Assembly (NCBI GenBank): GCA_024233865.1
Contig: JACKPA010000012.1
Coordinates: 192,001-204,607 of the forward strand
DNA: 12,607 bases
Source of the DNA: Leptospiraceae bacterium
GTDB taxonomy: Bacteria; Spirochaetota; Leptospiria; Leptospirales; Leptospiraceae
Direction: 5' to 3'
In this document: positions 1,813-12,541 of the stretch, piece after piece
How the letters are laid out: each line of letters opens with the position of its first letter
Position numbering within the stretch: position 1 is the stretch's first letter
Notes under the pieces: model-generated
Databases searched by the model: none
Seen by the model: the letters and a program-made list of their open reading frames with translations, nothing else
Told to the model about the DNA's origin: nothing
Position numbers and translations under genes: made by a program

Positions 1813-3282
1813 TTATTGTTTAGAGCTAACGGCAAGGTACATGGAAACTGCTTCGTAAATAACGGTTTGTAAGGGATTCGAGTTTTCGATTTTTGAGTTT
1901 CCCTTTCCGTGTTCATATACTACGCTAAGGTTAAAAGACGCGCTAGGTAGATTCCAAGATATTCCCAAACAATAACCTATTGTATTGATATACTCACCTC
2001 TGGATTTTTCTCCGAATAACTCTCCTATTTGAGGTACATACAAAATGGAAACCTGTTGATTTGAGGTGTTAGCGAGGTTTAAAATAGAATCTTCGCCAAA
2101 ATTACTAATAGAATTTATGAGCAAGGTATCTGCCCATTTTATTTTTTTTGTATTTGCCCTATTTGTAAAAACGCCACCTCGTAAAGAAAGTGTTTCTTTA
2201 GGAAAATATTCCAAGCCAAAAGCGAGGTTCAGAGTAGGTGACCTGTAAAGCTCACTATTCTCATTTTCTGTTAAGATAACGTGTTTTATGGATGATCCGG
2301 AATAAAAGTATCTGGTCTGATCTTGTGAGCGTCTATATCCGTCAGTGTAAACTGTATCAAAAGCCATTAAAAATTTAGAATTTGGAAACCAGGCAATTCC
2401 TATTCTATATTCATTTATTTTTGGGGTCTCTGCCGAAAAAACAGGGCCCGAAAACCCGAGACTATCGTTAATTTTTCCGCCGCTACCACTCTGACTTCCT
2501 TGCATTACGGCAACTCCGTCTTGTGAAGTATTGCTTGTGCTTACAATAAATGAATTTTGGTACCTTTTTCCTCTACTGCTTGGCATAGTTCGACTTACAC
2601 TAAATCCAAGAGATACTTTGGGGCGGATTGCATACAATAAACCAAAAATAGGGTAGATACCATTGGTAGTTCTATCATCCCTCGATGTCTGTACTAATCC
2701 GGTATCCGAAGTTCTGAATAAACTACTTGAGGCTAAATATTCGATATCCCTAAACATATATAGAGAACCACCAATAGAAAGCTTGGGAGTTAGAAGCATT
2801 GATAAGCTCGGACCCAGTAATATTTGGTTTGTTTCACTTGTTTCTTGACGTATTGCATCTTTTACATCCGGAAAGTATAGTGAAAGGTTTAGTTGCTCAT
2901 ATCTTCTGGAACTTTGGCTGATTTTATTGACTAGGGAAAGCCCGAACTTATATTTCCCAAAAGACTTGATAGAGCCTATAAAATTTGGTGAAAAATTATT
3001 CAAATTTTCAACTAAGTTTTGTCCCGGTCCCCATATATCCTGGTAGGTTTTTTGTACGCTATTGTAGCTAAAAATGGACATGGAAATGGAATCATCATAA
3101 GAAAAAGAAAGACCGGCAGGATTGTAATACGTTCCGGATGGATCATCGGAAATAGCTGTAAATGCTCCTCCCATTCCCGTAGCTCGTTCTCCAAAAAATC
3201 CGTTGATGTTGTGAAATCCATCAGCATAAGAGCCGGCTAGTGCCAAGAAAAACAAAATTGTTATATTTATTTTTTTATACAT
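1813..3282 (-). CDS. outer-membrane beta-barrel transport protein, OMPP1/FadL/TodX family (long-chain fatty acid / hydrophobic compound channel)
   Basis: 489 aa with an N-terminal signal peptide (MYKKINITILFFLALAGSYADG). The mature N-terminus carries the family hallmark FGERATGMGGAFTAISDDPSGTYYNPAGLSF (the G..GGAf.A.aDDasa.yyNPAGL motif that forms the hatch domain). The rest is rich in alternating aromatic/small residues typical of a beta-barrel. Confidence 0.6.
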   Translation of the reverse strand: MYKKINITILFFLALAGSYADGFHNINGFFGERATGMGGAFTAISDDPSGTYYNPAGLSFSYDDSISMSIFSYNSVQKTYQDIWGPGQNLVENLNNFSPNFIGSIKSFGKYKFGLSLVNKISQSSRRYEQLNLSLYFPDVKDAIRQETSETNQILLGPSLSMLLTPKLSIGGSLYMFRDIEYLASSSLFRTSDTGLVQTSRDDRTTNGIYPIFGLLYAIRPKVSLGFSVSRTMPSSRGKRYQNSFIVSTSNTSQDGVAVMQGSQSGSGGKINDSLGFSGPVFSAETPKINEYRIGIAWFPNSKFLMAFDTVYTDGYRRSQDQTRYFYSGSSIKHVILTENENSELYRSPTLNLAFGLEYFPKETLSLRGGVFTNRANTKKIKWADTLLINSISNFGEDSILNLANTSNQQVSILYVPQIGELFGEKSRGEYINTIGYCLGISWNLPSASFNLSVVYEHGKGNSKIENSNPLQTVIYEAVSMYLAVSSKQ

Positions 3283-3647: not shown

Positions 3648-4571
3648 CTACTTTTCTCGAATGTTTAAAGTCAACTGCCTCACATCATAATTTCCACCCA
3701 CTTTTTGCAGAGACAAACGAACTCCTTTTGTTCCTTTCCAACTTCCACCAACAATTCCTTGGTACATTCCGTTTTTTCCCAAAGATACCGTTTCTTTTTG
3801 TGGTAATACAACCGGTTTTTCAGAAGCAATAACCACTATCTTGTCATATCCTTCCGGTGGGGCAGCCAGTAATTTGTATTTTCCGGGAGCGTTTTCTGGC
3901 GGGAATTTTAATTCCGTATTGCTGGGAACTCGATTGTCGCTTTGGTATTTATTGGGAAAAACTTGCACAATTGCACCGTCCATAGTGTAAACAAGAATGG
4001 TGACATACACTTCTTTTATTTTAGATGTAATTGTGTATTCTATCTCGATAGGTTCTCCGAATTTAACCCCTTCGTTTTCTAACTCTGCATTAGAGAATAC
4101 TTCCATTAACTCTATTTCGGTTTTTTTATTCGGTGATTTTAGATTGATTAGTTGTATCAAGCTTGCTTCTACTTCCAAAATATTCAAGAGTTCCGATACA
4201 TTTTTTTCCGTATAACTTTCCCAAGCACCAAGAATACGGGTCGTTTCGACTTGAACTAATTTGAAAGAAGTTGACTTATGGTTGTCAAACAAAACGATAT
4301 AATATGCACCTAGCGTTTTGCCGATTTTGGGACCATCTTTTACCAAGCCTGATTGTTCTAAATTGCTTTCTTTTAGCAATTTGTTGAGCTGCTTTCTCTC
4401 CACCGGTTGTGCAAAATCGGTTTTAAGTAATTTTCCCTCTATTGCAGTCATGAATTTGGAAGAACCACCGGCAACCGCTATCATTAGTTTGCCGTTTATT
4501 AACTGGGGGAACGCCGATAAGTTTAGCGGGAATTGTAAAATGAAAATAACTAAAAAAACAAAAATTCTCAT
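3648..4571 (-). CDS. secreted hypothetical protein; N-terminal CsgG-like motif region plus C-terminal DUF4384-like domain
   Basis: 307 aa with a cleavable signal peptide (MRIFVFLVIFILQFPLNLSA) and no lipobox cysteine. N-terminal region: LMIAVAGGSSKFMTAIEGKLLKTDFAQPVERKQLNKLLKESNLEQSGLVKDGPKIGKTLGAYYIV, resembling the CsgG-family signature ER..L..L.E..L..SG.V....IGK.LGA.Y. C-terminal region: KEVYVTILVYTMDGAIVQVFPNKYQSDNRV..KYKLLAAPPEGYDKIVVIAS, resembling DUF4384 (conserved ..DG.i..lFPN.. core). Both family assignments are from memory. Confidence 0.45.
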   Translation of the reverse strand: MRIFVFLVIFILQFPLNLSAFPQLINGKLMIAVAGGSSKFMTAIEGKLLKTDFAQPVERKQLNKLLKESNLEQSGLVKDGPKIGKTLGAYYIVLFDNHKSTSFKLVQVETTRILGAWESYTEKNVSELLNILEVEASLIQLINLKSPNKKTEIELMEVFSNAELENEGVKFGEPIEIEYTITSKIKEVYVTILVYTMDGAIVQVFPNKYQSDNRVPSNTELKFPPENAPGKYKLLAAPPEGYDKIVVIASEKPVVLPQKETVSLGKNGMYQGIVGGSWKGTKGVRLSLQKVGGNYDVRQLTLNIREK

Positions 4572-4626: not shown

Positions 4627-4658
4627 TTGACATATTTAGTATTCCTAAGTTTAGATAA
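4627..4658 (+). promoter_or_regulatory. candidate sigma70-like promoter for the PAS gene in a 110-bp divergent intergenic region
   Basis: TTGACA at 4627-4632. AT-rich -10 candidates (tttaga / tagata / gataat) lie 17-20 nt downstream. A GGAGAG ribosome-binding site is 7 nt before the ATG at 4683. The -10 assignment is ambiguous. Confidence 0.2.
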
Positions 4659-4682
4659 TAATACAAGAGTTGGAGAGAGTAA

Positions 4683-6131
4683 ATGGAAGAAAATGGAACC
4701 CTGGGTAATAACCCATTAGATGCAGTGGATGATATTCCAGAAAATATGACAAAAAATAAACAAGAATCACAAATAGAAATAGAAAAAGAGTCATTACTAA
4801 AAGAAATTGATATATTGCAAAAACAAATTTATTTGCATACTCAAAGACAAGAGTTAATTTGTAAAGCTACCAATTCCGGATTGATAGAAATCAATATAAT
4901 AGATGGCCAAGTTGACCATTCTGAGACGACTTTTAGACTATCAAATGAATTTACTTCTCTTTTAGGTTATAGTGAAGATGAACTCCCAAATAATATTACG
5001 GACTGGTTTGCTCTCCTGCACCCGGAAGACTTGGAATTTGTAAGAAAGCGGTTTTATTCTCATTTGGAAGATAAATCTGCTGAAACTTCTTTCGTTATTA
5101 AGTGCAGAATTTTAGATAAAAATGGTAACTATTTGTGGATGCAAGGTTCAGGAGATACTCTGAGAGATGAGATGGAAAATCCAATATTTTTTCTTGCTCA
5201 ATTTAGGGTGATCCAGAAAGAAAAAATTCAAGAAACGGAATTTGAAATTATATCAACACGGTTCGATCTGCTCAACCAAGCAACCAGTGAAGGCTATTGG
5301 GACATGGTTATACCTGCTGACATGAATGTAGTGGATGATACTTATGTTTGGTATTCTGAACAGTTTAGAAAGATGTTGGGTTATCAAGATGAAAGTGATT
5401 TCCCTAATCGAATGGATAGTTGGTCTGTTTCGTTTCACCCGGAAGATATTGAGAGGGTTTTTGAGCAATTTCAGCAACACATTATGGATAAATCCGGTGA
5501 AACGGAATTTGATACGGAGTATCGTTTGAAGCTCAAGTCCGGAGAATTTCAATGGTTTCGTTCCAGAGGTGCAATTTTGTTGGATGAAGTAAAGCAACAC
5601 TTTAGGAGCGTAGGCTCATTAAAAAACATCAATGAGGAAAAGCAAATTGAGTTAGAGATTCAGTCTTTGTTAAAAGAGATCAATCGATTGACAGAGTCGG
5701 CAATTGAAGGAAAGATATTTAGTAGATTTGATACTTCCAATTTCCAAGACTATAACTTTGTCCATATTACACAGGAATTAAATTCTTTGCTAGATTCTAT
5801 CGTGCAGCCGATAGACGAAGGAATCATGCTTCTTCAAAAATTACAAACCGGAGATTTTAGTCAAAAACTGGAAATTGAATGTAAAGGAGAACATTTGAAA
5901 CTAAAAGAATCTATCAACTCCATTCAAAAATGGTTCTCTGAAATTAGTTCTTATTTAAGTAAAATTGTCAACGGAGATGGCAATGCCACATTAGAAAGAA
6001 TCTCTGATATAGATCCGCTTTATGAAAATTTGGAAAAACTAAAAAATAAACAACCAAAATTAACAACAAAAATAAATCCAACACCTGAAACTAGTGTAGA
6101 ATTAAAAATAACTATACGTTCGGAATCCTGA
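4683..6131 (+). CDS. cytoplasmic signalling protein: coiled-coil / PAS (PAS_3-like) / PAS (PAS_3-like) / coiled-coil / HAMP-like segment, with no recognisable output domain
   Basis: 482 aa with no transmembrane segment. There are two PAS-fold units with PAS_3-type motifs (W..LLHPEDLEFV...F..KCRILDKNGNYLWMQGSG and W.VSFHPEDIERV...EYRLKLKSGEFQWFRSRG). A HAMP-like stretch follows (GIMLLQKLQTGDFSQKLEIECKGEHLKLKESINSIQKWFSEI). There is no methyl-accepting, kinase, GGDEF/EAL or DNA-binding domain before the stop at 6131. Confidence 0.65.
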   Translation: MEENGTLGNNPLDAVDDIPENMTKNKQESQIEIEKESLLKEIDILQKQIYLHTQRQELICKATNSGLIEINIIDGQVDHSETTFRLSNEFTSLLGYSEDELPNNITDWFALLHPEDLEFVRKRFYSHLEDKSAETSFVIKCRILDKNGNYLWMQGSGDTLRDEMENPIFFLAQFRVIQKEKIQETEFEIISTRFDLLNQATSEGYWDMVIPADMNVVDDTYVWYSEQFRKMLGYQDESDFPNRMDSWSVSFHPEDIERVFEQFQQHIMDKSGETEFDTEYRLKLKSGEFQWFRSRGAILLDEVKQHFRSVGSLKNINEEKQIELEIQSLLKEINRLTESAIEGKIFSRFDTSNFQDYNFVHITQELNSLLDSIVQPIDEGIMLLQKLQTGDFSQKLEIECKGEHLKLKESINSIQKWFSEISSYLSKIVNGDGNATLERISDIDPLYENLEKLKNKQPKLTTKINPTPETSVELKITIRSES

Positions 6132-6155: not shown

Positions 6156-6193
6156 TTTTTTTCTTCAATTCATTTTTATGATTGAAGAAAAAG
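6156..6193 (+). terminator. AT-rich hairpin about 25 nt after the PAS gene stop; possible bidirectional intrinsic terminator
   Basis: Inverted repeat tttttcttcaattca (6156-6172) / tgattgaagaa (6179-6189) around a ttttta loop. The upstream arm is a T-run and the downstream arm ends in aaaa, so the structure is plausible on either strand. The stem is AT-rich and therefore weak. Confidence 0.3.
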
Positions 6194-6248: not shown

Positions 6249-6280
6249 TTGACAGCATGTTTCACAGATATAGGTAATTT
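6249..6280 (+). promoter_or_regulatory. possible promoter (-35 TTGACA) for the RNA-binding protein gene, implying a ~150-nt 5' UTR
   Basis: TTGACA at 6249-6254 followed by tataggtaat about 14-17 nt downstream. The -10 is imperfect and the spacing ambiguous. Confidence 0.15.
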
Positions 6281-6433
6281 CTGTTAGACCATGGTGCAGG
6301 AATAGAATTAATCCACTACTTGTTTTTGTTAAAGCCATTAATTTACGCCTAAAACAGACTACGGAGTCGATCCCTTTCTAGCTTGTTTCCAAACAACTTT
6401 CAAATTTACAAAACTATTTATTGGAGATATAAA

Positions 6434-6751
6434 ATGAACATATATGTAGGAAACCTTTCTCACTCTACAACAGAGGACACCTTAAGTAAATCTTTTGGAG
6501 TTTATGGTGCTGTTGAATCAGTAAAAATCATCACAGATAAATACAGCGGACAGCCTAGAGGTTTTGCCTTTGTTGAAATGGCTAACAAAAGCGAGTCTCG
6601 TAAGGCAATCCAAGAGTTAAACGAAACTGAGCTAGATGGCAGACAAATTAAAGTGAATGAAGCGAAACCAAGAGAAAACCGAAGAGACTTTAATAGTGGC
6701 GGTGGTGGTAGTGGCGGCGGCGGTCATCGTCGTAACAACAATCGTTGGTAA
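6434..6751 (+). CDS. RRM-domain glycine-rich RNA-binding protein (Rbp-type, about 105 aa)
   Basis: MNIYVGNLSHSTTEDTLSKSFGVYGAVESVKIITDKYSGQPRGFAFVEMANKSESRKAIQELNETELDGRQIKVNEAKPRE contains RNP2 (IYVGNL) and RNP1 (RGFAFVEM), followed by a GGGGSGGGGHRRNNNRW tail. A GGAG Shine-Dalgarno sequence lies 8 nt upstream of the ATG at 6434. The longer ORF-track start at 6383 has no ribosome-binding site and adds a non-conserved extension. Confidence 0.85.
   Translation: MNIYVGNLSHSTTEDTLSKSFGVYGAVESVKIITDKYSGQPRGFAFVEMANKSESRKAIQELNETELDGRQIKVNEAKPRENRRDFNSGGGGSGGGGHRRNNNRW
6698..6724 (+). repeat. in-frame GGY/AGT simple-sequence tract encoding the GGGGSGGGG tail of the RNA-binding protein
   Basis: ggc ggt ggt ggt agt ggc ggc ggc ggt is a low-complexity triplet repeat inside the CDS. 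Confidence 0.5.
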
Positions 6752-6861: not shown

Positions 6862-7041
6862 TAAGCTAAATACAATTCGGAATTGAATATTTCCATAATA
6901 GATGTCCTTGCTTTATTTGAATGTTAAGATTTGTATCCCTTGACTATTCTAATCGAATAAAAAAAACTTAAAATAAAAAATTAATTTATCTTTTCTATTC
7001 CTAAAAAATTAATACTTTTAGCATTAACTTTGGAAGGTTTT

Positions 7042-7542
7042 ATGAAATACTTTTTGTTATTTATATCATTTAGCTTGTGCTTTTTGACAGTTCCTATGTT
7101 GGCAGAAACCAAATTCATTGTAGGTTGGGCTGAAAAAGTGAAGATTTTTCCTGGCAATTTTACCGTAAAAGCCAGAATTGATACGGGAGCAAAAACCTCG
7201 TCTATAAATACTCCTTTTTATGAAACATTCGAAAAAGATGGAAAAACTTGGGTGCGTTTTGATTTTATGGATAAAAAAGGGAAAAAAAAGACCATAGAAA
7301 AAGAAGTCCTAAGAACTTCAAAAATTAAAAGAAAAGGTATGAAGTCCGAAGAGCGTCCGGTTGTAAAATTGGAAATATGCCTTGGTAATGTTTATAAAGA
7401 GTCTGAAGTAAATCTTGTGGATAGAAGTAATTTTAATTATCAGATTCTGATAGGAAGGAGTTATTTGGAAAATGATTTTCTGGTAGATTCTTCCAGCCGG
7501 TTTACAAAAAAACCGAATTGTAAAATTCCGGGGAAAAAATGA
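7042..7542 (+). CDS. secreted retropepsin-like aspartic protease (the 'putative ATP-dependent zinc protease' / DUF785 family that accompanies RimK-like ATP-grasp genes)
   Basis: Signal peptide MKYFLLFISFSLCFLTVPMLA, then KFIVGWAEKVKIFPGNFTVKARIDTGAKTSSIN containing the aspartic-protease D-T-G-A motif (D at nt 7180-7182). Size (about 165 aa) and position immediately upstream of the 7TM-transglutaminase and ATP-grasp genes match the known three-gene arrangement. The alternative TTG start at 7030 (ORF track) is less likely than the ATG at 7042, which follows ggaagg. Confidence 0.65.
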   Translation: MKYFLLFISFSLCFLTVPMLAETKFIVGWAEKVKIFPGNFTVKARIDTGAKTSSINTPFYETFEKDGKTWVRFDFMDKKGKKKTIEKEVLRTSKIKRKGMKSEERPVVKLEICLGNVYKESEVNLVDRSNFNYQILIGRSYLENDFLVDSSSRFTKKPNCKIPGKK

Positions 7543-9077
7543 AAAATTTTCATCTTTTTTTCCTTTGCTTTTTTTTGATTGCAATTGGTTTTGGCTTATT
7601 TTTTTACAAATATTCCTACCTTGATTTTCCTATAGTTCCTAACAGTATTGTGGAAGTATGGAATTTGGAGATCAAAATTCGGTTTGAAACAGAAAAGCAG
7701 TCGGTTAAAGTCAGGCTGAATATCCCCAAAAATACGCAAAGGTATACAATTACTTCCGAATCTTTTGTTTCGGGAAGTTTTGGCTTGGTGACGGACATAA
7801 GTAAAGGCAATCGAAGAGCGATATGGTCAATTCGTAAAAGCAGCGGAATAAAAAATTTGTACTACAGAGCTGTCATTCAAAAAAGAGGAAAACCTAGAAA
7901 AGAGGTTCCAACAGAAGCAGAAATAACCGAACATAGATTGGATGATGCACAAAAACTAGCTGCTCAAAATATAATAACTGCCATATATACCAAATCTGCT
8001 GATATGGATACAATGATTTCTGAGCTTTTTCAGCGACTCAATAAGGAAGAACCGGATGAAAACGTGTTGGTTCTTTTAGGAAAGGAGTCAACAGCAGAAC
8101 AGAAAGTAAAAATGGCAGTTCGAATTCTTGCTTTGGCGAAAATTCCTGCTCGTGTGGTTTATGGAATTGATCTGAAGGAACAAAGGGGTTTGAAACAATT
8201 GCGTACTTGGCTAGAAGTATACTTTGATAAAACATGGAGAGCTTATTTACCAAAAACAAGGCTTCCGGAAATTCCGGAAAATTACTTTAGCTTGTATAAG
8301 GGTAACTATCCTTTGGTAAAGCTTAAAGGTGGAGATAAATTGCGATTTGTTATATCGGTAAGTCCGAACCAAGAAGAAGCAATCAAAAAAGCAGTAGAGC
8401 ATGGGAGAATTCATTCTCCTAATTTCTTAAAATTTTTATCTTTGTTCGGACTTCCTATTCAAACACAATCCTTGTATAGAGTCATATTGCTTATACCTAT
8501 TGGCGTTTTTTTGGTTGTGCTGCTTCGAAATGTTATTGGGCTAAAAACCTTTGGAACTTTTATGCCTGTTCTTATTGCACTCTCGTTTCGTGAAACCCAA
8601 CTTTTATGGGGGATTTTTTGGTTTGTTACACTAATTGGTCTTGGAGTTTTGTTTCGGTTTTATTTGGAAAATTTAAAACTCCTCCTTGTGCCACGTTTGG
8701 CATCGGTTCTTATTGTGGTTGTCTTACTAATGTTGATGCTAAACGTCTTTACACAAAATCTTGGTTTGGAGCTTGGATTATCCATTGCACTGTTTCCAAT
8801 GGTGATTTTGACAATGACTATCGAAAGGATGTCTATAGTTTGGGAAGAACGCGGAGTTAAAGAAGCATTGCAGCAGGGAGCTGGTACATTAGTTGTTGCC
8901 ATTGTAGCCTATCTCATTATAACAAATCAATTTGTTGGTCATATCGTTTTTGTTTTTCCGGAAGTTCTTTTGGTATTTTTAGCGTTCACAATACTGCTTG
9001 GTCGATATACAGGTTATCGTCTTTCTGAAATTGGTCGCTTCAAGTCTTTGATTGCAAAAGAGAATGGTAAAATATAA
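7539..9077 (+). CDS. membrane protein: N-terminal anchor helix, inactive transglutaminase-like domain, C-terminal 7-transmembrane domain (Transglut_i_TM / 7TM_transglut architecture; 'UUP1-family'-type)
   Basis: 512 aa. One N-terminal helix (FHLFFLCFFLIAIGFGLFFY). The central region carries a transglutaminase-like core ...LGKESTAEQKVKMAVRILALAKIPARVVYG..., in which the catalytic Cys of the G.C..fA...RA.GIPAR motif is replaced (TAEQ), hence predicted inactive. The C-terminal ~200 aa form about 7 hydrophobic helices (GVFLVVLLRNVIGLKTFGTFMPVLIALSF...). The start overlaps the protease stop (ATGA, 7539-7542). Confidence 0.7.
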   Translation: MKNFHLFFLCFFLIAIGFGLFFYKYSYLDFPIVPNSIVEVWNLEIKIRFETEKQSVKVRLNIPKNTQRYTITSESFVSGSFGLVTDISKGNRRAIWSIRKSSGIKNLYYRAVIQKRGKPRKEVPTEAEITEHRLDDAQKLAAQNIITAIYTKSADMDTMISELFQRLNKEEPDENVLVLLGKESTAEQKVKMAVRILALAKIPARVVYGIDLKEQRGLKQLRTWLEVYFDKTWRAYLPKTRLPEIPENYFSLYKGNYPLVKLKGGDKLRFVISVSPNQEEAIKKAVEHGRIHSPNFLKFLSLFGLPIQTQSLYRVILLIPIGVFLVVLLRNVIGLKTFGTFMPVLIALSFRETQLLWGIFWFVTLIGLGVLFRFYLENLKLLLVPRLASVLIVVVLLMLMLNVFTQNLGLELGLSIALFPMVILTMTIERMSIVWEERGVKEALQQGAGTLVVAIVAYLIITNQFVGHIVFVFPEVLLVFLAFTILLGRYTGYRLSEIGRFKSLIAKENGKI

Positions 9078-10019
9078 ATGTTTGTAACGTTATCAAAGCT
9101 CGTTCAAAAAAAGGTTCTTGGCATTAACCAACGCAACGCTGACTATATACTCAAATACAATCCCCGTCCTTTATATCCTCTTGTGGATGATAAGTTACTC
9201 ACAAAGAAATTGGCAATAGAAGCTGGTATGAATGTACCACAACTCTATGGTGTAATTGAAGTGCAGCACCAAAGGCGAGAGTTGGCAACCTTATTAAACA
9301 AACATTCTGATTTTGTGATCAAGCCAGCTTGTGGGAGTGGGGGAAATGGAATTTTAGTTATCCAAGAAAACAAAAAAGACAAGTACCGTAAACCAAATGG
9401 GATGTTTTTAACCGAAGTAGATCTTAAATTCCATGTATCCAATATTATAAGCGGAATGTACAGTTTAGGGGGGCATCCGGACAAGGCGATTATTGAATAT
9501 CGCATCCAACCTGATCCTGTTTTTGAGTCAATTAGCTACCAAGGTGTTCCTGATATTCGAATCATAGTATTTTTAGGAGTTCCCGTTATGTCTATGGTAC
9601 GTCTTCCCACCTTTATGTCAGACGGAAAAGCAAACCTTCATCAAGGGGCAATAGGAGCAGGCATAGATATAGGCACAGGCAAAACTCTATCAGCTGTCTA
9701 TTTTGATGAAATCATTTATGAGCATCCTAACACTGGAAATTCGGTTGTAGGGATTCAAATTCCCGAATGGGATAAATTTTTAAATCTTGCCACTCGTTGT
9801 TATGAGTTGACCGGGCTTGGATACCAAGGAGTAGACATTGTTCTGGATAAAAACTATGGACCAATGATCCTTGAGCTCAATGCTCGTCCCGGACTCAATA
9901 TTCAAATTGCCAATAATGTGGGGTTATTAGAACGTCTCGAAATTGTTGAAAAGAATTGGAAAGATTTGAAATCGGCTTCGGAACGGATCGATTTTGCCAA
10001 AAAGCATTTTAAGGTGTAA
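9078..10019 (+). CDS. alpha-L-glutamate ligase-like ATP-grasp protein (RimK-related peptide/amino-acid ligase)
   Basis: 313 aa. N-terminal LGINQRNADYILKYNPRPLYPLVDDKLLTKKLAIEAGMNVPQLYG is the characteristic start of the RimK-related 'alpha-L-glutamate ligase-like' family. ATP-grasp features follow (KPACGSGGNGILVI; C-terminal YQGVDIVLDKNYGPMILELNARPGLNIQIAN, the Mg/ATP-binding D...E.N segment). The ATG at 9078 abuts the TAA of the upstream gene (9075-9077). Confidence 0.75.
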   Translation: MFVTLSKLVQKKVLGINQRNADYILKYNPRPLYPLVDDKLLTKKLAIEAGMNVPQLYGVIEVQHQRRELATLLNKHSDFVIKPACGSGGNGILVIQENKKDKYRKPNGMFLTEVDLKFHVSNIISGMYSLGGHPDKAIIEYRIQPDPVFESISYQGVPDIRIIVFLGVPVMSMVRLPTFMSDGKANLHQGAIGAGIDIGTGKTLSAVYFDEIIYEHPNTGNSVVGIQIPEWDKFLNLATRCYELTGLGYQGVDIVLDKNYGPMILELNARPGLNIQIANNVGLLERLEIVEKNWKDLKSASERIDFAKKHFKV

Positions 10020-10111: not shown

Positions 10112-12541
10112 ATGGATAAATGCTACCACTGTCAGACACCATTAAGTCCCCAAACGACCTATAAAGGTTCTATAAAGGGTGAAGAAAAACTCTTTTGTTG
10201 TAATGGATGCAAAACCGTTGCTGAGTTCATTTCCTTATCAGGAAATGAGAAATTTTACGATTTAAGAGGCTCTGTTTCTTTAGAGCCGGCTACTAGCATT
10301 CAAACATCCATAGATGAAAACCTGGATAGCGAATATACTTATAACGAATTTGTAACCGGAGTTGATCCTACAAAGCGGGAAGTTTTTGTCAATATTACAA
10401 ATATTCATTGTTCTGCTTGTGTATGGTTAAATGAAAAAGTTCTCTCCCAAACAGAAGGTATAAAGGGTATTCGGATTAATTTTGCCAATTCGAGAGCTCA
10501 TATCGTATGGGATGATACAATTCTTAAACTATCTAAAATTTTTACCATTATACAAGGAATTGGTTACAAACCCGTTTTATATGCTCCTTGGAAAAAAGAA
10601 AACCAAAACAGCCAGTTTGAAATAGACTTACTCATGCGATTGGGGGTTGCTGGGTTCTGTTTTGGAAATATTATGCTCTTTGGAGTGGCACTGTACACCG
10701 GTTATTTTAGTGGGATAGAAATTGGATTTAAAAAGCTCTTGCACTACGCTTCCTGGATTATGGCAACTCCAGCTTACTTATACTCTGGAATGCCTTTTTT
10801 AAGAGGAGCTTACTATGGGATCAAAAATAAATCCGTCACAATGGACTTGCTTCTAGTTTTAGGTGTCAGCTTAGCCTATTTTTATAGTGTTTACGTAACA
10901 CTTACGGATAGAGGAGAAGTCTATTTTGATTCTGTTTGTATGATATATTTTTTTATACTAATCGGAAAATACTTTGAAGCAAGGTCGAGAAATTCGGCAA
11001 GTCGAAAGGTACAAACCTTGCTGAGTAAGCTACCGGATATTGTAAGTCTCATCCAAGATGGTAAAGAGACAAAAATCTTGTCTCACCAAATACAAGTTGG
11101 TGAGACCATTATGATTTCTCCAGGAGAGCGGATCCCGATTGATGGAAATTTGCTACAAGGAGAAGTAAGTATTGACGAATCTTTTTTAACGGGAGAGTCC
11201 AAACCTGTTTTGAAACAAACCGGAATGATGTTACTTGCCGGTTCCATTAACTTGGACAAAAACTTATATATGCAAGCGACATCTACTTCCAAAGACTCCA
11301 ATCTGGCAAGGATCCAAAAAATGGTTGACGGAGCACTATTTGAAAAACCAAAAGTCCAACTGATTTTGGATAGGATTTCTTCTTATTTTATTTTGGTAGT
11401 TTTGTCTGTTTCCCTTTTGGTCTTTTTTTCATGGTTTTTTTACGGTGCAGGTTTTGAAACGGCTTTGCTCAATTCTATATCCGTTCTTATCATTGCCTGC
11501 CCCTGTGCTTTAGGTTTAGCTGTTCCAACAGCAATAGTTATGAACCATTTGGTTAGCTCCGAAAAAGGAATTTTAATTAAAAATGCGAGCGTTATTGAGG
11601 CATTGTCCAAGCCTAATTACCTAATATTTGATAAGACAGGAACTCTAACAGAGGGTAAGCTAAAGGTTATTAAAGATGAACTTGTCCAAGATAAAGTTAC
11701 GTTGGAATTGCTTTTAATGGTAGAATATGGCTCAAAACATCCTATAGCCAAGTCCATTCAAAATTATTTGTTAAGTCGGAATGTTAGTTATAATCCTTCC
11801 GAAGATGTTAGAATACAGATAGAAGAAAAGTCCGGTTTTGGTCTTGAAGGAGAAATTTGGAAAAACGATATATGCTACTTTGTGAAAGTAGGCAAACTTC
11901 ACTTTGTTTCAAACGATACCCAAGAAGATACAACAAATGAAATCGGAACGAGAATTCACGTTTCCATTAACGAAAGTTATAAAGGCTATTTGGTTTTGCG
12001 GGACACAATCAGAAAAGAAGCCAAAGAAGAAATCGAGTTGTTAAAAAAGCAATTAGATGGCATCATCATTTTATCCGGAGATGATTTGTCTGTTGTAAAA
12101 GAGGTTTCCAATCAATTGGATATCGAAACATTCTATCATGGGATGACTCCCAAGCAGAAATTGGAGCAAATAGAACGTTTGCAGCTGGAAGGAAAAAAAG
12201 TTATCACTGTTGGAGATGGTTTGAACGATGCCGGAATGTTAGCCAAATCCGATGCCGGTATTTCCATGCAGTTAGGAGCTGATATAACAATCGATAGAGC
12301 CGATATAATACTAATGAACAACCACCTTTCGGGAGTGAGGAGACTCTTTTTTTATTCTCAAAAAACTATGTCCGTGATTCGAGATAATATAATTATTTCA
12401 TTGATTTATAATTCGATTGCCATTCCATTGGCGGCATTCGGATTTTTAATTCCCATTATATGTGCTTTGTTTATGACTTTGAGTTCTCTTACTGTTGTCT
12501 CCAATTCTTTATTGATAAAATTCAGAACGCGGAAAATGTAG
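10112..12541 (+). CDS. heavy-metal (Cu+-type) translocating P1B-type ATPase with a FixI/CcoI-style N-terminal zinc-ribbon and one HMA-like domain
   Basis: 809 aa. N-terminus CYHCQTPL...LFCCNGCKTVAEFI (Cx2C...CCxGC, as in FixI/CcoI-type copper ATPases). An HMA-like domain has HCSAC in place of the usual MxCxxC (ITNIHCSACVWLNEKVLSQTEGIKGIRINF). Eight hydrophobic helices include the CPC metal-binding motif (IIACPCALG, about nt 11498-11506). Further motifs: TGES (LTGESKPV), DKTGTLT phosphorylation site (about nt 11630-11650), HP motif (GSKHPIAKSI), GDGLNDAGML hinge. Confidence 0.9.
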   Translation: MDKCYHCQTPLSPQTTYKGSIKGEEKLFCCNGCKTVAEFISLSGNEKFYDLRGSVSLEPATSIQTSIDENLDSEYTYNEFVTGVDPTKREVFVNITNIHCSACVWLNEKVLSQTEGIKGIRINFANSRAHIVWDDTILKLSKIFTIIQGIGYKPVLYAPWKKENQNSQFEIDLLMRLGVAGFCFGNIMLFGVALYTGYFSGIEIGFKKLLHYASWIMATPAYLYSGMPFLRGAYYGIKNKSVTMDLLLVLGVSLAYFYSVYVTLTDRGEVYFDSVCMIYFFILIGKYFEARSRNSASRKVQTLLSKLPDIVSLIQDGKETKILSHQIQVGETIMISPGERIPIDGNLLQGEVSIDESFLTGESKPVLKQTGMMLLAGSINLDKNLYMQATSTSKDSNLARIQKMVDGALFEKPKVQLILDRISSYFILVVLSVSLLVFFSWFFYGAGFETALLNSISVLIIACPCALGLAVPTAIVMNHLVSSEKGILIKNASVIEALSKPNYLIFDKTGTLTEGKLKVIKDELVQDKVTLELLLMVEYGSKHPIAKSIQNYLLSRNVSYNPSEDVRIQIEEKSGFGLEGEIWKNDICYFVKVGKLHFVSNDTQEDTTNEIGTRIHVSINESYKGYLVLRDTIRKEAKEEIELLKKQLDGIIILSGDDLSVVKEVSNQLDIETFYHGMTPKQKLEQIERLQLEGKKVITVGDGLNDAGMLAKSDAGISMQLGADITIDRADIILMNNHLSGVRRLFFYSQKTMSVIRDNIIISLIYNSIAIPLAAFGFLIPIICALFMTLSSLTVVSNSLLIKFRTRKM

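Follow-up and report, generated by a model that had tools for sequence, protein, structure and literature searches.

A PAS-PAS-HAMP protein of a Leptospiraceae bacterium that comes from a chemoreceptor-type array and is retained without an output domain

What is a sensor protein for if nothing is fused to it that could pass the signal on? The question is raised by a gene in a 12,607-nucleotide stretch of DNA from a Leptospiraceae bacterium (GenBank assembly GCA_024233865.1, contig JACKPA010000012.1, positions 192,001 to 204,607 of the forward strand; hereafter the window), an AT-rich sequence of ~35% G+C. This gene, referred to below as the sensor gene, encodes two PAS domains followed by HAMP-like sequence and then stops. 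An earlier note on this DNA had proposed a truncated chemoreceptor, a stand-alone sensor or an adaptor pairing with a full-length PAS chemoreceptor or kinase. We find that the product is a genuine, lineage-restricted, output-less PAS-PAS-HAMP protein, which comes from a chemoreceptor-type array and is retained as a stand-alone protein. Taken as a whole, the best explanation is a soluble, probably homodimeric sensor built of chemoreceptor parts, to which we give a probability of roughly one half. Its architecture and its descent from chemoreceptors are by themselves highly probable, and the mechanism by which it would act in trans as a stand-alone sensor is put forward tentatively. We class it as a fresh variation on two known kinds, Aer2-like PAS/HAMP receptors and effector-less PAS sensors, and propose no separate category for it.

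Does the protein really lack an output? Pfam recognizes PAS_3 (PF08447) in two stretches (E 2e-37, 127.8 bits against a gathering threshold of 25.6), with PAS, PAS_9 and PAS_11 also matching, and HAMP_2 (PF18947) at residues 359-417 (42.8 bits against a gathering threshold of 24.3, E 5e-11). Beyond PAS and HAMP_2 nothing in the protein rises above the Pfam cut-offs, be it a kinase, cyclase or signaling domain, in agreement with the reading of the earlier note. PF00015, the signaling domain of methyl-accepting chemotaxis proteins (MCPs), gives no match in the protein even at E <= 1, so that input and relay modules of chemoreceptor type are present and the domain that defines an MCP is not. NCBIfam models returned only local PAS/HAMP matches to parts of large sensors, all far under their whole-protein cut-offs. 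Likewise, no detached output domain follows the gene, as had been supposed from the short distance (~300 bp) to the next one. The spacer between the sensor stop and the ATG (6434) of a gene for an RRM-type protein measures 302 bp and holds no open reading frame (ORF) longer than 57 residues, no Rfam match and no similarity to MCPs. A relic of an MCP signaling domain was sought in the whole window by tblastn with seven such domains at E up to 100, and the best E was 0.26.

On homology, both halves of the protein are shown to have chemoreceptor-type ancestry. Outside the family, the PAS pair is closest to five PAS-(PAS)-MCPsignal proteins, with identities of 36% over 60% of the query (P0003) and 44% over 40% (P0005), and the C-terminal part is nearest to poly-HAMP/MCPsignal proteins; the suggestion that the parts stem from soluble PAS chemoreceptors is therefore upheld. 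The C-terminal relatives come from an exhaustive HMMER search with residues 315-482, which gave 4954 matches among 1.84 billion representatives and was used instead of a word-index homology search with the C-terminal 168 residues, an uninformative one that missed even the identical parent protein. The best of these matches are proteins of 600-2500 residues with 3-18 tandem stretches and a unit of ~90 residues. By Pfam they are HAMP_2 arrays, the complete ones ending in MCPsignal and some beginning with 4HB_MCP or PAS. Their taxa are scattered (Terriglobales, Ignavibacteriales, Sulfuricella, Pseudomonadota), and no donor lineage can be named from them.

The layout of the protein (Table 1) begins with an acidic segment and a long helix, for which phmmer finds no homologue beyond the two members of the family. 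The motifs TLGNNPLD and DIPxNM of the acidic segment are kept in the orthologue described below, and this N-terminus (residues 1-26) could be a second short docking motif alongside the conserved C-terminal tail. The two PAS domains that follow are clearly true paralogues as judged from their alignment, the local score being 180 against 29 +/- 5 for shuffles. We modeled the protein as a monomer with AlphaFold2 (AF2) on a 22-sequence alignment. The mean predicted local distance difference test score (pLDDT) is 74, and the PAS domains exceed 90. Foldseek matched the tandem PAS to the FixL PAS-A/B dimer 8js5 (template modeling score 0.76-0.78) and also to a Brucella LOV-PAS-HK. The closest solved PAS is 3mr0, the FixL match in the sequence-level structure comparison being weak.

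The HAMP-like segment pointed out earlier is real and is larger than claimed, comprising residues 316-457 and the start of a fourth HAMP. The Pfam HAMP_2 match spans AS2 of a non-canonical unit, HAMP-A, and the canonical HAMP-B. Residues 331-414 align to the Aer2 PAS-HAMP4/5 construct 3VOL (chain positions 143-225) and to the AskA poly-HAMP structure 9TRK, and residues 330-414 match positions 413-496 of the NCBIfam Vibrio Aer2 model. The 9TRK paper describes alternating non-canonical and canonical HAMPs, types A and B, in chemoreceptor arrays (Coles et al. 2026, PMC13446029). The same A-then-B alternation is found here, since the counterparts of HAMP-A in the alignments (Aer2 HAMP4, AskA) are non-canonical and those of HAMP-B canonical. 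The next segment, C, is collinear with a conserved stretch of the relatives, 'AYvTKIANGDMTA..KAS..DQIHEWL', and we infer that it would be a third HAMP, which would make residues 316-457 a three-unit HAMP stack. Pfam gives no significant match to the isolated HAMP-A and segment-C pieces. Comparison of segment C with A-type or B-type HAMP profiles by hhalign gave no signal, in a test that is powerless, A against B failing too, and the HAMP units of the protein have no detectable similarity to one another. In the AF2 model residues 317-455 are all-helical at lower confidence, with helices at 391-429, 437-442 and 446-455.

The earlier note had also described an N-terminal coiled coil that recurs before the HAMP part, as if the protein were built of repeated coil-plus-sensor units. 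With coordinates corrected to ~4770-4829 and 5640-5696, 6 nt off the earlier starts, QESQIEIEKESLLKEIDIL and EEKQIELEIQSLLKEINRL do share 11 of 19 residues (score 55, z = 4.6, reached in 3 of 2000 shuffles), but the likeness is absent from the orthologue (z = -0.8). The second 'coiled coil', KQIELEIQSLLKEINRLTE, is really the lead-in and AS1 helix of HAMP-A, a unit that aligns to Aer2 HAMP4 and to hundreds of other HAMP units. With the second segment belonging to a true HAMP, repeated coil-plus-sensor units find no support as the plan of the protein, and we discarded the idea.

Which part of a chemoreceptor array was retained? In pairwise HMMER comparisons one unit per relative matches residues 326-482 at 75-98 bits, against 20-40 bits for ordinary repeats. 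The signature of this special unit is PIxEGNRvLxLIxGGNLRExvEIxC-K-G-D-H-xKMKxAvNGVHxWLxxLiAYvTKIANGDMTAxMxKASxxDQIHEWLxLmKNNIxAL. The C-x-G-D-H signature occurs exactly once in 39 of 177 proteins (37 poly-HAMP relatives, the sensor protein and its orthologue), and variants of the form C-[FHYS]-G-D-H are found in other relatives. Carriers include P0031, P0036, P0042-P0048, P0076 (residues 434-589) and P0112, in which the Cys and several His are near-invariant. The unit lies 259 to 662 residues from the receptor tip, depending on the protein, and Pfam labels it as HAMP_2 only. In poly-HAMP chemoreceptors the unit may, from its conserved residues, be a metal, redox or docking site; the words cysteine, metal and zinc are absent from the 2026 poly-HAMP structural paper. 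Its counterpart in the window protein is residues 376-457 (nt 5808-6053), which keep C400, G402, H404, W417 and NGD and have lost others, GVH being replaced by SIQ and DQIHEW by DPLYEN. The retained A/B/C unit might on this basis be an autonomous module, docking or metal/redox-active through its Cys and His, that the PAS pair controls and that is itself the output. We regard this as quite unlikely.

The alignments with these relatives also show where the protein ends, namely in the connector of a fourth HAMP, a few residues after that connector begins. In the relatives segment C is followed by unit D, which hhalign identifies as an A-type HAMP (99.7%), and the last 25 residues of the sensor protein are collinear with its start in P0076, P0031 and P0112 (for example '...aLvxDanxLsxaAveGkLxtRADAs'). 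When only the tail was scored with a hidden Markov model, the orthologue reached 9.2 bits, a score attained by 0 of 1000 shuffles, and the window protein 0.7 bits, with 19 of 1000 shuffles as good. Three prolines, P458, P466 and P468, replace helix-forming residues of the former AS1, and all are kept in the orthologue. In AF2 the tail has no structure (pLDDT ~35). By this alignment and prediction the fourth-HAMP stub is turned, with its three prolines, into a conserved flexible tail. Obvious fragments excepted, the relatives extend at least 100-790 residues past the point at which the sensor protein stops.

Such an end invites the idea of a split receptor, in which another chain would supply the rest of the fourth HAMP and the signaling domain. 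This is one version of a broader alternative, in which the protein is a modulator or decoy that forms mixed oligomers or docks with a receptor or kinase bearing a related PAS/HAMP array, adding an input, acting as a dominant negative or serving as half of a split receptor. Both halves of the protein being of chemoreceptor type, its termination in the former AS1 helix of a HAMP, and the existence of bipartite PAS-plus-MCP receptors (PMC2628428, PMC12442639) all speak for it, as does a CheB-CheR-PAS fusion in the same 21-kb region, a sign that the organism has chemotaxis-type signaling. The conserved prolines and the predicted disorder speak against a stub that joins a second protein to complete a helical bundle. 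The gene has no partner gene beside it, and apart from the orthologue no protein in our collection, the NCBI proteome of the metagenome-assembled genome (MAG) included, is more than 44% identical to the PAS part or more than ~33% to the HAMP part; because of this, no closely matched heterodimer partner is visible. For the same lack of a close full-length paralogue, the notion that the gene is a 5' paralogous fragment, or that its product heterodimerizes with a paralogue, found no backing. We consider a modulator or decoy unlikely, and prefer the stand-alone sensor.

Is the short protein itself maintained? An identical protein is annotated as 'MAG: PAS domain-containing protein [Leptospiraceae bacterium]' on contig JAGRNI010000022.1 of assembly GCA_020440835.1, and the identical gene also lies on a Logan contig from SRR12358676; the two assemblies are possibly of one sample. 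The sole orthologue, P0002, comes from the independent run SRR28370466, has 489 residues and the same Pfam domains, and is 77% identical. A profile search with both members found no third, and scans of one genome per GTDB species and of Joint Genome Institute (JGI) metagenome contigs gave generic PAS matches only. Among the 1.84 billion representatives searched exhaustively the family forms one 50% cluster, and it numbers two members among 5.8 billion clusters.

The orthologue aligns end to end with the window protein, and in the alignment their stops are no more than five codons apart. Beyond the stop the 3' flank is unalignable, its similarity to the orthologue locus being no better than that of shuffled sequence. 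The parts most conserved are PAS2 (90% identity) and HAMP-A (84%). The two genes differ at 401 nucleotides, 263 of them in third codon positions. For the whole gene the ratio of nonsynonymous to synonymous differences per site (pN/pS) is 0.16 (pS 0.86, pN 0.14; Fisher p 6e-121), and it is 0.15 in the HAMP region (residues 316-457; Fisher p 7e-40), 0.29 over residues 418-482 (Fisher p 2e-8) and 0.37 in the last 25 codons (Fisher p 0.028). As measured by these codon comparisons, the whole sensor ORF is shown to be under purifying selection in two lineages, its C-terminal part included. As a separate observation, pS in the last 25 codons (6054-6128) is 0.46, compared with 0.86 for the rest of the gene, over only 18 synonymous sites; the low value may be noise or may reflect a constraint at the nucleotide level near the 3' end.

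The claim of a truncated chemoreceptor thus holds in one respect, as the protein looks cut short inside a HAMP, and fails in another, since an orthologue of the same length and end, together with purifying selection, speaks against a simple loss of function. That an orthologue of equal length would count against truncation had been set down beforehand in the earlier note, and one such orthologue is what was found. The more extreme possibility is a functionless remnant, a chemoreceptor gene without its 3' half whose frame is merely still open and which has no selected role. It would account for a stop inside a HAMP where all relatives carry on into further HAMPs and an output domain, for the loss of conserved residues from the special unit and for so tiny a family. 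It does not sit well with two lineages that, at near-saturated synonymous sites, keep frame, length and end at the ratios given above, with coding sequence conserved right up to the stop and unalignable sequence beyond it, or with a conserved start codon, Shine-Dalgarno sequence and N-terminal motif. We hold a mere remnant to be improbable, and the retained stand-alone sensor remains our preferred explanation.

A frameshift or chimeric join that cut a longer chemoreceptor gene during sequencing or assembly is a real concern for proteins of this kind. Several 'output-less' poly-HAMP entries in the databases end in Arg/Pro-rich frameshift junk or at contig ends. One of them, P0066 (L010:732-2603), is overlapped by an ORF (L010:2554-4344) that continues from HAMP_2 into MCPsignal and is followed by CheW and CheR; its reading frames identify it as the first half of a chemoreceptor gene broken by a frameshift, not as an output-less PAS-HAMP-polyHAMP protein. 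We looked for a family of output-less relatives among the short poly-HAMP matches that lack an output by Pfam, and dropped the idea, these being frameshift junk or contig ends, with P0066 continuing into MCPsignal. For the window gene an artifact is hardly credible. The same end recurs in the orthologue from the independent sample, and the identical sequence stands in two assemblies, maybe of one sample. Nowhere in the window, downstream of the gene or elsewhere, does any frame show MCPsignal-like coding potential, and beyond the stop come a hairpin and then a distinct gene, that of the RRM protein.

How is the gene delimited? TTGGAGAGA at the Shine-Dalgarno site is invariant in the alignment with the orthologue locus, and the orthologue gene also has TTGACA upstream. 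That the TTGACA and the -10-like hexamer at 4627..4656 are the promoter of the sensor gene is offered as a suggestion only, read from the letters; a consensus scan did not call this pair. The hairpin after the stop, noted earlier at 6156-6193, indeed folds, as 6157-6193 and at about -13.4 kcal/mol. In the fold of the 84-nt segment 6132-6215 this centroid energy corresponds to z = -2.2, with 3 of 200 shuffles as stable. A consensus terminator scan missed the hairpin because it requires at least three G-C pairs and the hairpin is AT-rich. It is a plausible intrinsic terminator of the sensor gene. With a divergent gene upstream, its own Shine-Dalgarno sequence and the hairpin after its stop, the putative transcription unit appears to be monocistronic.

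How might such a protein work? In the scheme we favor, the N-terminal helix would lead into the two paralogous PAS_3 domains and these into an in-line short HAMP stack, as in Aer2; by analogy with the relatives, the ancestral array would have run on into more HAMPs and an MCP signaling domain. The protein would probably form a homodimer through a parallel HAMP four-helix bundle, in keeping with the established behavior of HAMP domains (PMC13446029). The PAS pair would sense a ligand or state, and this would alter how the helices of the HAMP bundle pack. As the protein carries no fused module for catalysis or kinase control, the readout would have to be protein binding in trans, presumably by a second protein that binds the distal HAMP bundle (the Cys/His unit, segment C) or the conserved tail differently as a result.

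Several observations weigh against this scheme. The selection analysis is a single pairwise comparison of the only two members, and its support in the last 25 codons is modest (p = 0.028). Neither Pfam nor profile-profile comparison recognizes segment C as a HAMP. AF2 confidence in the HAMP part is low (pLDDT 43-68, for a monomer with a shallow alignment), and neither PAS domain has an assignable cofactor or ligand. A CheB-CheR-PAS_10 fusion apart, the genes within +/-10 kb include no chemoreceptor, kinase or obvious signaling partner, and the sensor gene is not co-transcribed with a partner, unlike that of CetB.

Comparison with known systems places the protein between several of them. Like Aer2 (P. 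aeruginosa, PDB 3VOL; Vibrio, NF041847), it is soluble, with PAS followed by an in-line di-HAMP, non-canonical then canonical. Unlike Aer2, it lacks the MCP signaling domain and the N-terminal HAMP1-3, and its PAS domains are of the PAS_3 type; the Aer2 model NF041847 scores 39.6 bits against an equivalog cut-off of 1200, as a local match to residues 330-414. With the poly-HAMP arrays (PMC13446029) it shares the Cys, Gly, His, Trp and NGD motif of one three-part unit. The relatives with such arrays have 3-18 tandem units and end in MCPsignal when complete, whereas the sensor protein has one unit and stops in the next HAMP. Poly-HAMP arrays are described as typically having no upstream sensor domain (PMC13446029), and the sensor protein carries two PAS domains upstream. 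Poly-HAMPs are made of many similar concatenated di-HAMPs, and here there is one di-HAMP and one extra hairpin, the units having no significant similarity to each other. By the definition of PMC13446029 the sensor protein is thus 'multi-HAMP' (few, dissimilar HAMPs), not 'poly-HAMP'.

Soluble PAS-PAS-MCPsignal chemoreceptors, such as P0003 of Paenibacillus algorifonticola, have the same tandem PAS_3 with the pattern WDM...FPN...W...HPED...YRLK.K.G...W, but no HAMP stands between their PAS pair and the MCP domain; here the pair leads into the HAMP stack. The best functional analogy is CetB/CetA, in which a PAS protein signals in trans to a chemoreceptor (C. jejuni, PMC2628428; CetB2/CetA2 of M. 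gryphiswaldense, PMC12442639). Like the sensor protein, CetB is an output-less PAS protein. CetB has PAS only, the HAMP being on CetA, and the two genes are adjacent and co-transcribed; in contrast, the HAMPs here are on the sensor protein itself, and no MCP gene that could be a CetA-like adjacent HAMP-MCP partner lies within +/-10 kb. Another parallel is offered by short LOV proteins (PMC4416707, PMC4335406), effector-less PAS photoreceptors whose sensor dimers have flanking helices and no fused effector. Unlike these, the sensor protein has tandem PAS and HAMPs and no flavin-cysteine motif: GxNCRFLQ is absent from the translated sequence, and its only cysteines, C60, C141 and C400, are all outside such a context. 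A literature search on output-less PAS-HAMP proteins found nothing specific.

Table 1. Features of the sensor gene and of its surroundings (positions in the window unless a locus is given).
Feature	Position	Strand	Description
Sensor ORF	4683..6131	+	ATG start, TGA stop, 482 aa; PAS-PAS-HAMP array protein without output domain
Candidate promoter	4627..4656	+	TTGACA at 4627-4632, then 17-18 nt, weak -10-like hexamer TTTAGA/TTAGAT; read from sequence
Shine-Dalgarno-like GGAGAG	4672..4677	+	5 nt 5' of ATG; read from sequence
Acidic N-terminal segment	4683..4760	+	aa 1-26; predicted mostly disordered, AF2 pLDDT 36-48
Long N-terminal helix	4761..4868	+	aa 27-62, leads into PAS1; AF2 pLDDT 81-91 from about residue 31, 48 for residues 21-30
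PAS1, PAS_3 type	4869..5213	+	aa 63-177; Pfam PAS_3, PAS, PAS_11; AF2 strands 65-176, pLDDT > 90
Inter-PAS helix	5214..5282	+	aa 178-200; AF2 helix H178-200
PAS2, PAS_3 type	5283..5627	+	aa 201-315; Pfam PAS_3 at 223-311; PDB 3mr0 E 2e-14
Linker and HAMP-A, non-canonical	5628..5807	+	aa 316-375; aligns to Aer2 HAMP4, AskA poly-HAMP and A-type units of poly-HAMP chemoreceptors
HAMP-B, canonical	5808..5942	+	aa 376-420; connector with C400-K-G-E-H404; Pfam HAMP_2
Segment C, HAMP-like helical hairpin	5943..6053	+	aa 421-457, SYLSKIVNGD...DPLYENLEKLKNK; short second helix ended by Pro458
C-terminal tail	6054..6128	+	aa 458-482, PKLTTKINPTPETSVELKITIRSES; proline-rich, predicted disordered; aligns to start of fourth, A-type HAMP
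Hairpin and T-rich tract	6157..6193	+	AT-rich; candidate intrinsic terminator of sensor gene
CheB-methylesterase/CheR-methyltransferase/PAS_10 fusion gene	L008:1-1197	-	at least 847 aa; ~9 kb upstream, unrelated genes between
489-aa ORF	1813-3282	-	no Pfam or PADLOC match; adjoins DUF4384/CsgG-like gene
DUF4384/CsgG-like putative lipoprotein gene	3648-4571	-	divergent from sensor gene, 111-bp spacer
RRM-type RNA-binding protein gene	6434-6751	+	105 aa, Gly-rich C-terminus
Three-gene cluster	7030-10019	+	RimB-like putative Zn protease, inactive-transglutaminase/7TM protein, sugar-transfer-associated ATP-grasp enzyme (peptide-ligase-type system)
Heavy-metal (copper-type) P-type ATPase gene	10112-12541	+	after three-gene cluster

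Among the neighbors within +/-10 kb, which also include PanE and DUF2752 genes, the CheB-CheR-PAS_10 fusion shows, from its predicted domains, that the organism has chemotaxis-type methylation signaling. PADLOC defense models gave no match, and Rfam none anywhere in the window. Upstream of the RRM gene, the region 6249-6433 contains a promoter-like pair of TTGACA (6249-6254) and TAGGTAAT (6271-6278), which leaves a leader of ~155 nt; the leader matches no Rfam family.

The wider importance of the family is limited, because effector-less PAS proteins are common and it has two members. Unlike the sensor protein, the majority of other database entries that pass for 'output-less poly-HAMP' proteins are artifacts, frameshifted or partial. 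The comparison also draws attention to a conserved Cys/His unit, present once per protein, in poly-HAMP chemoreceptors. If the protein is a working sensor, it would be a natural PAS-HAMP input-and-relay unit that is selected without a fused output, and it would offer a compact model for what a lone HAMP stack signals to and for how truncated receptors get re-used.

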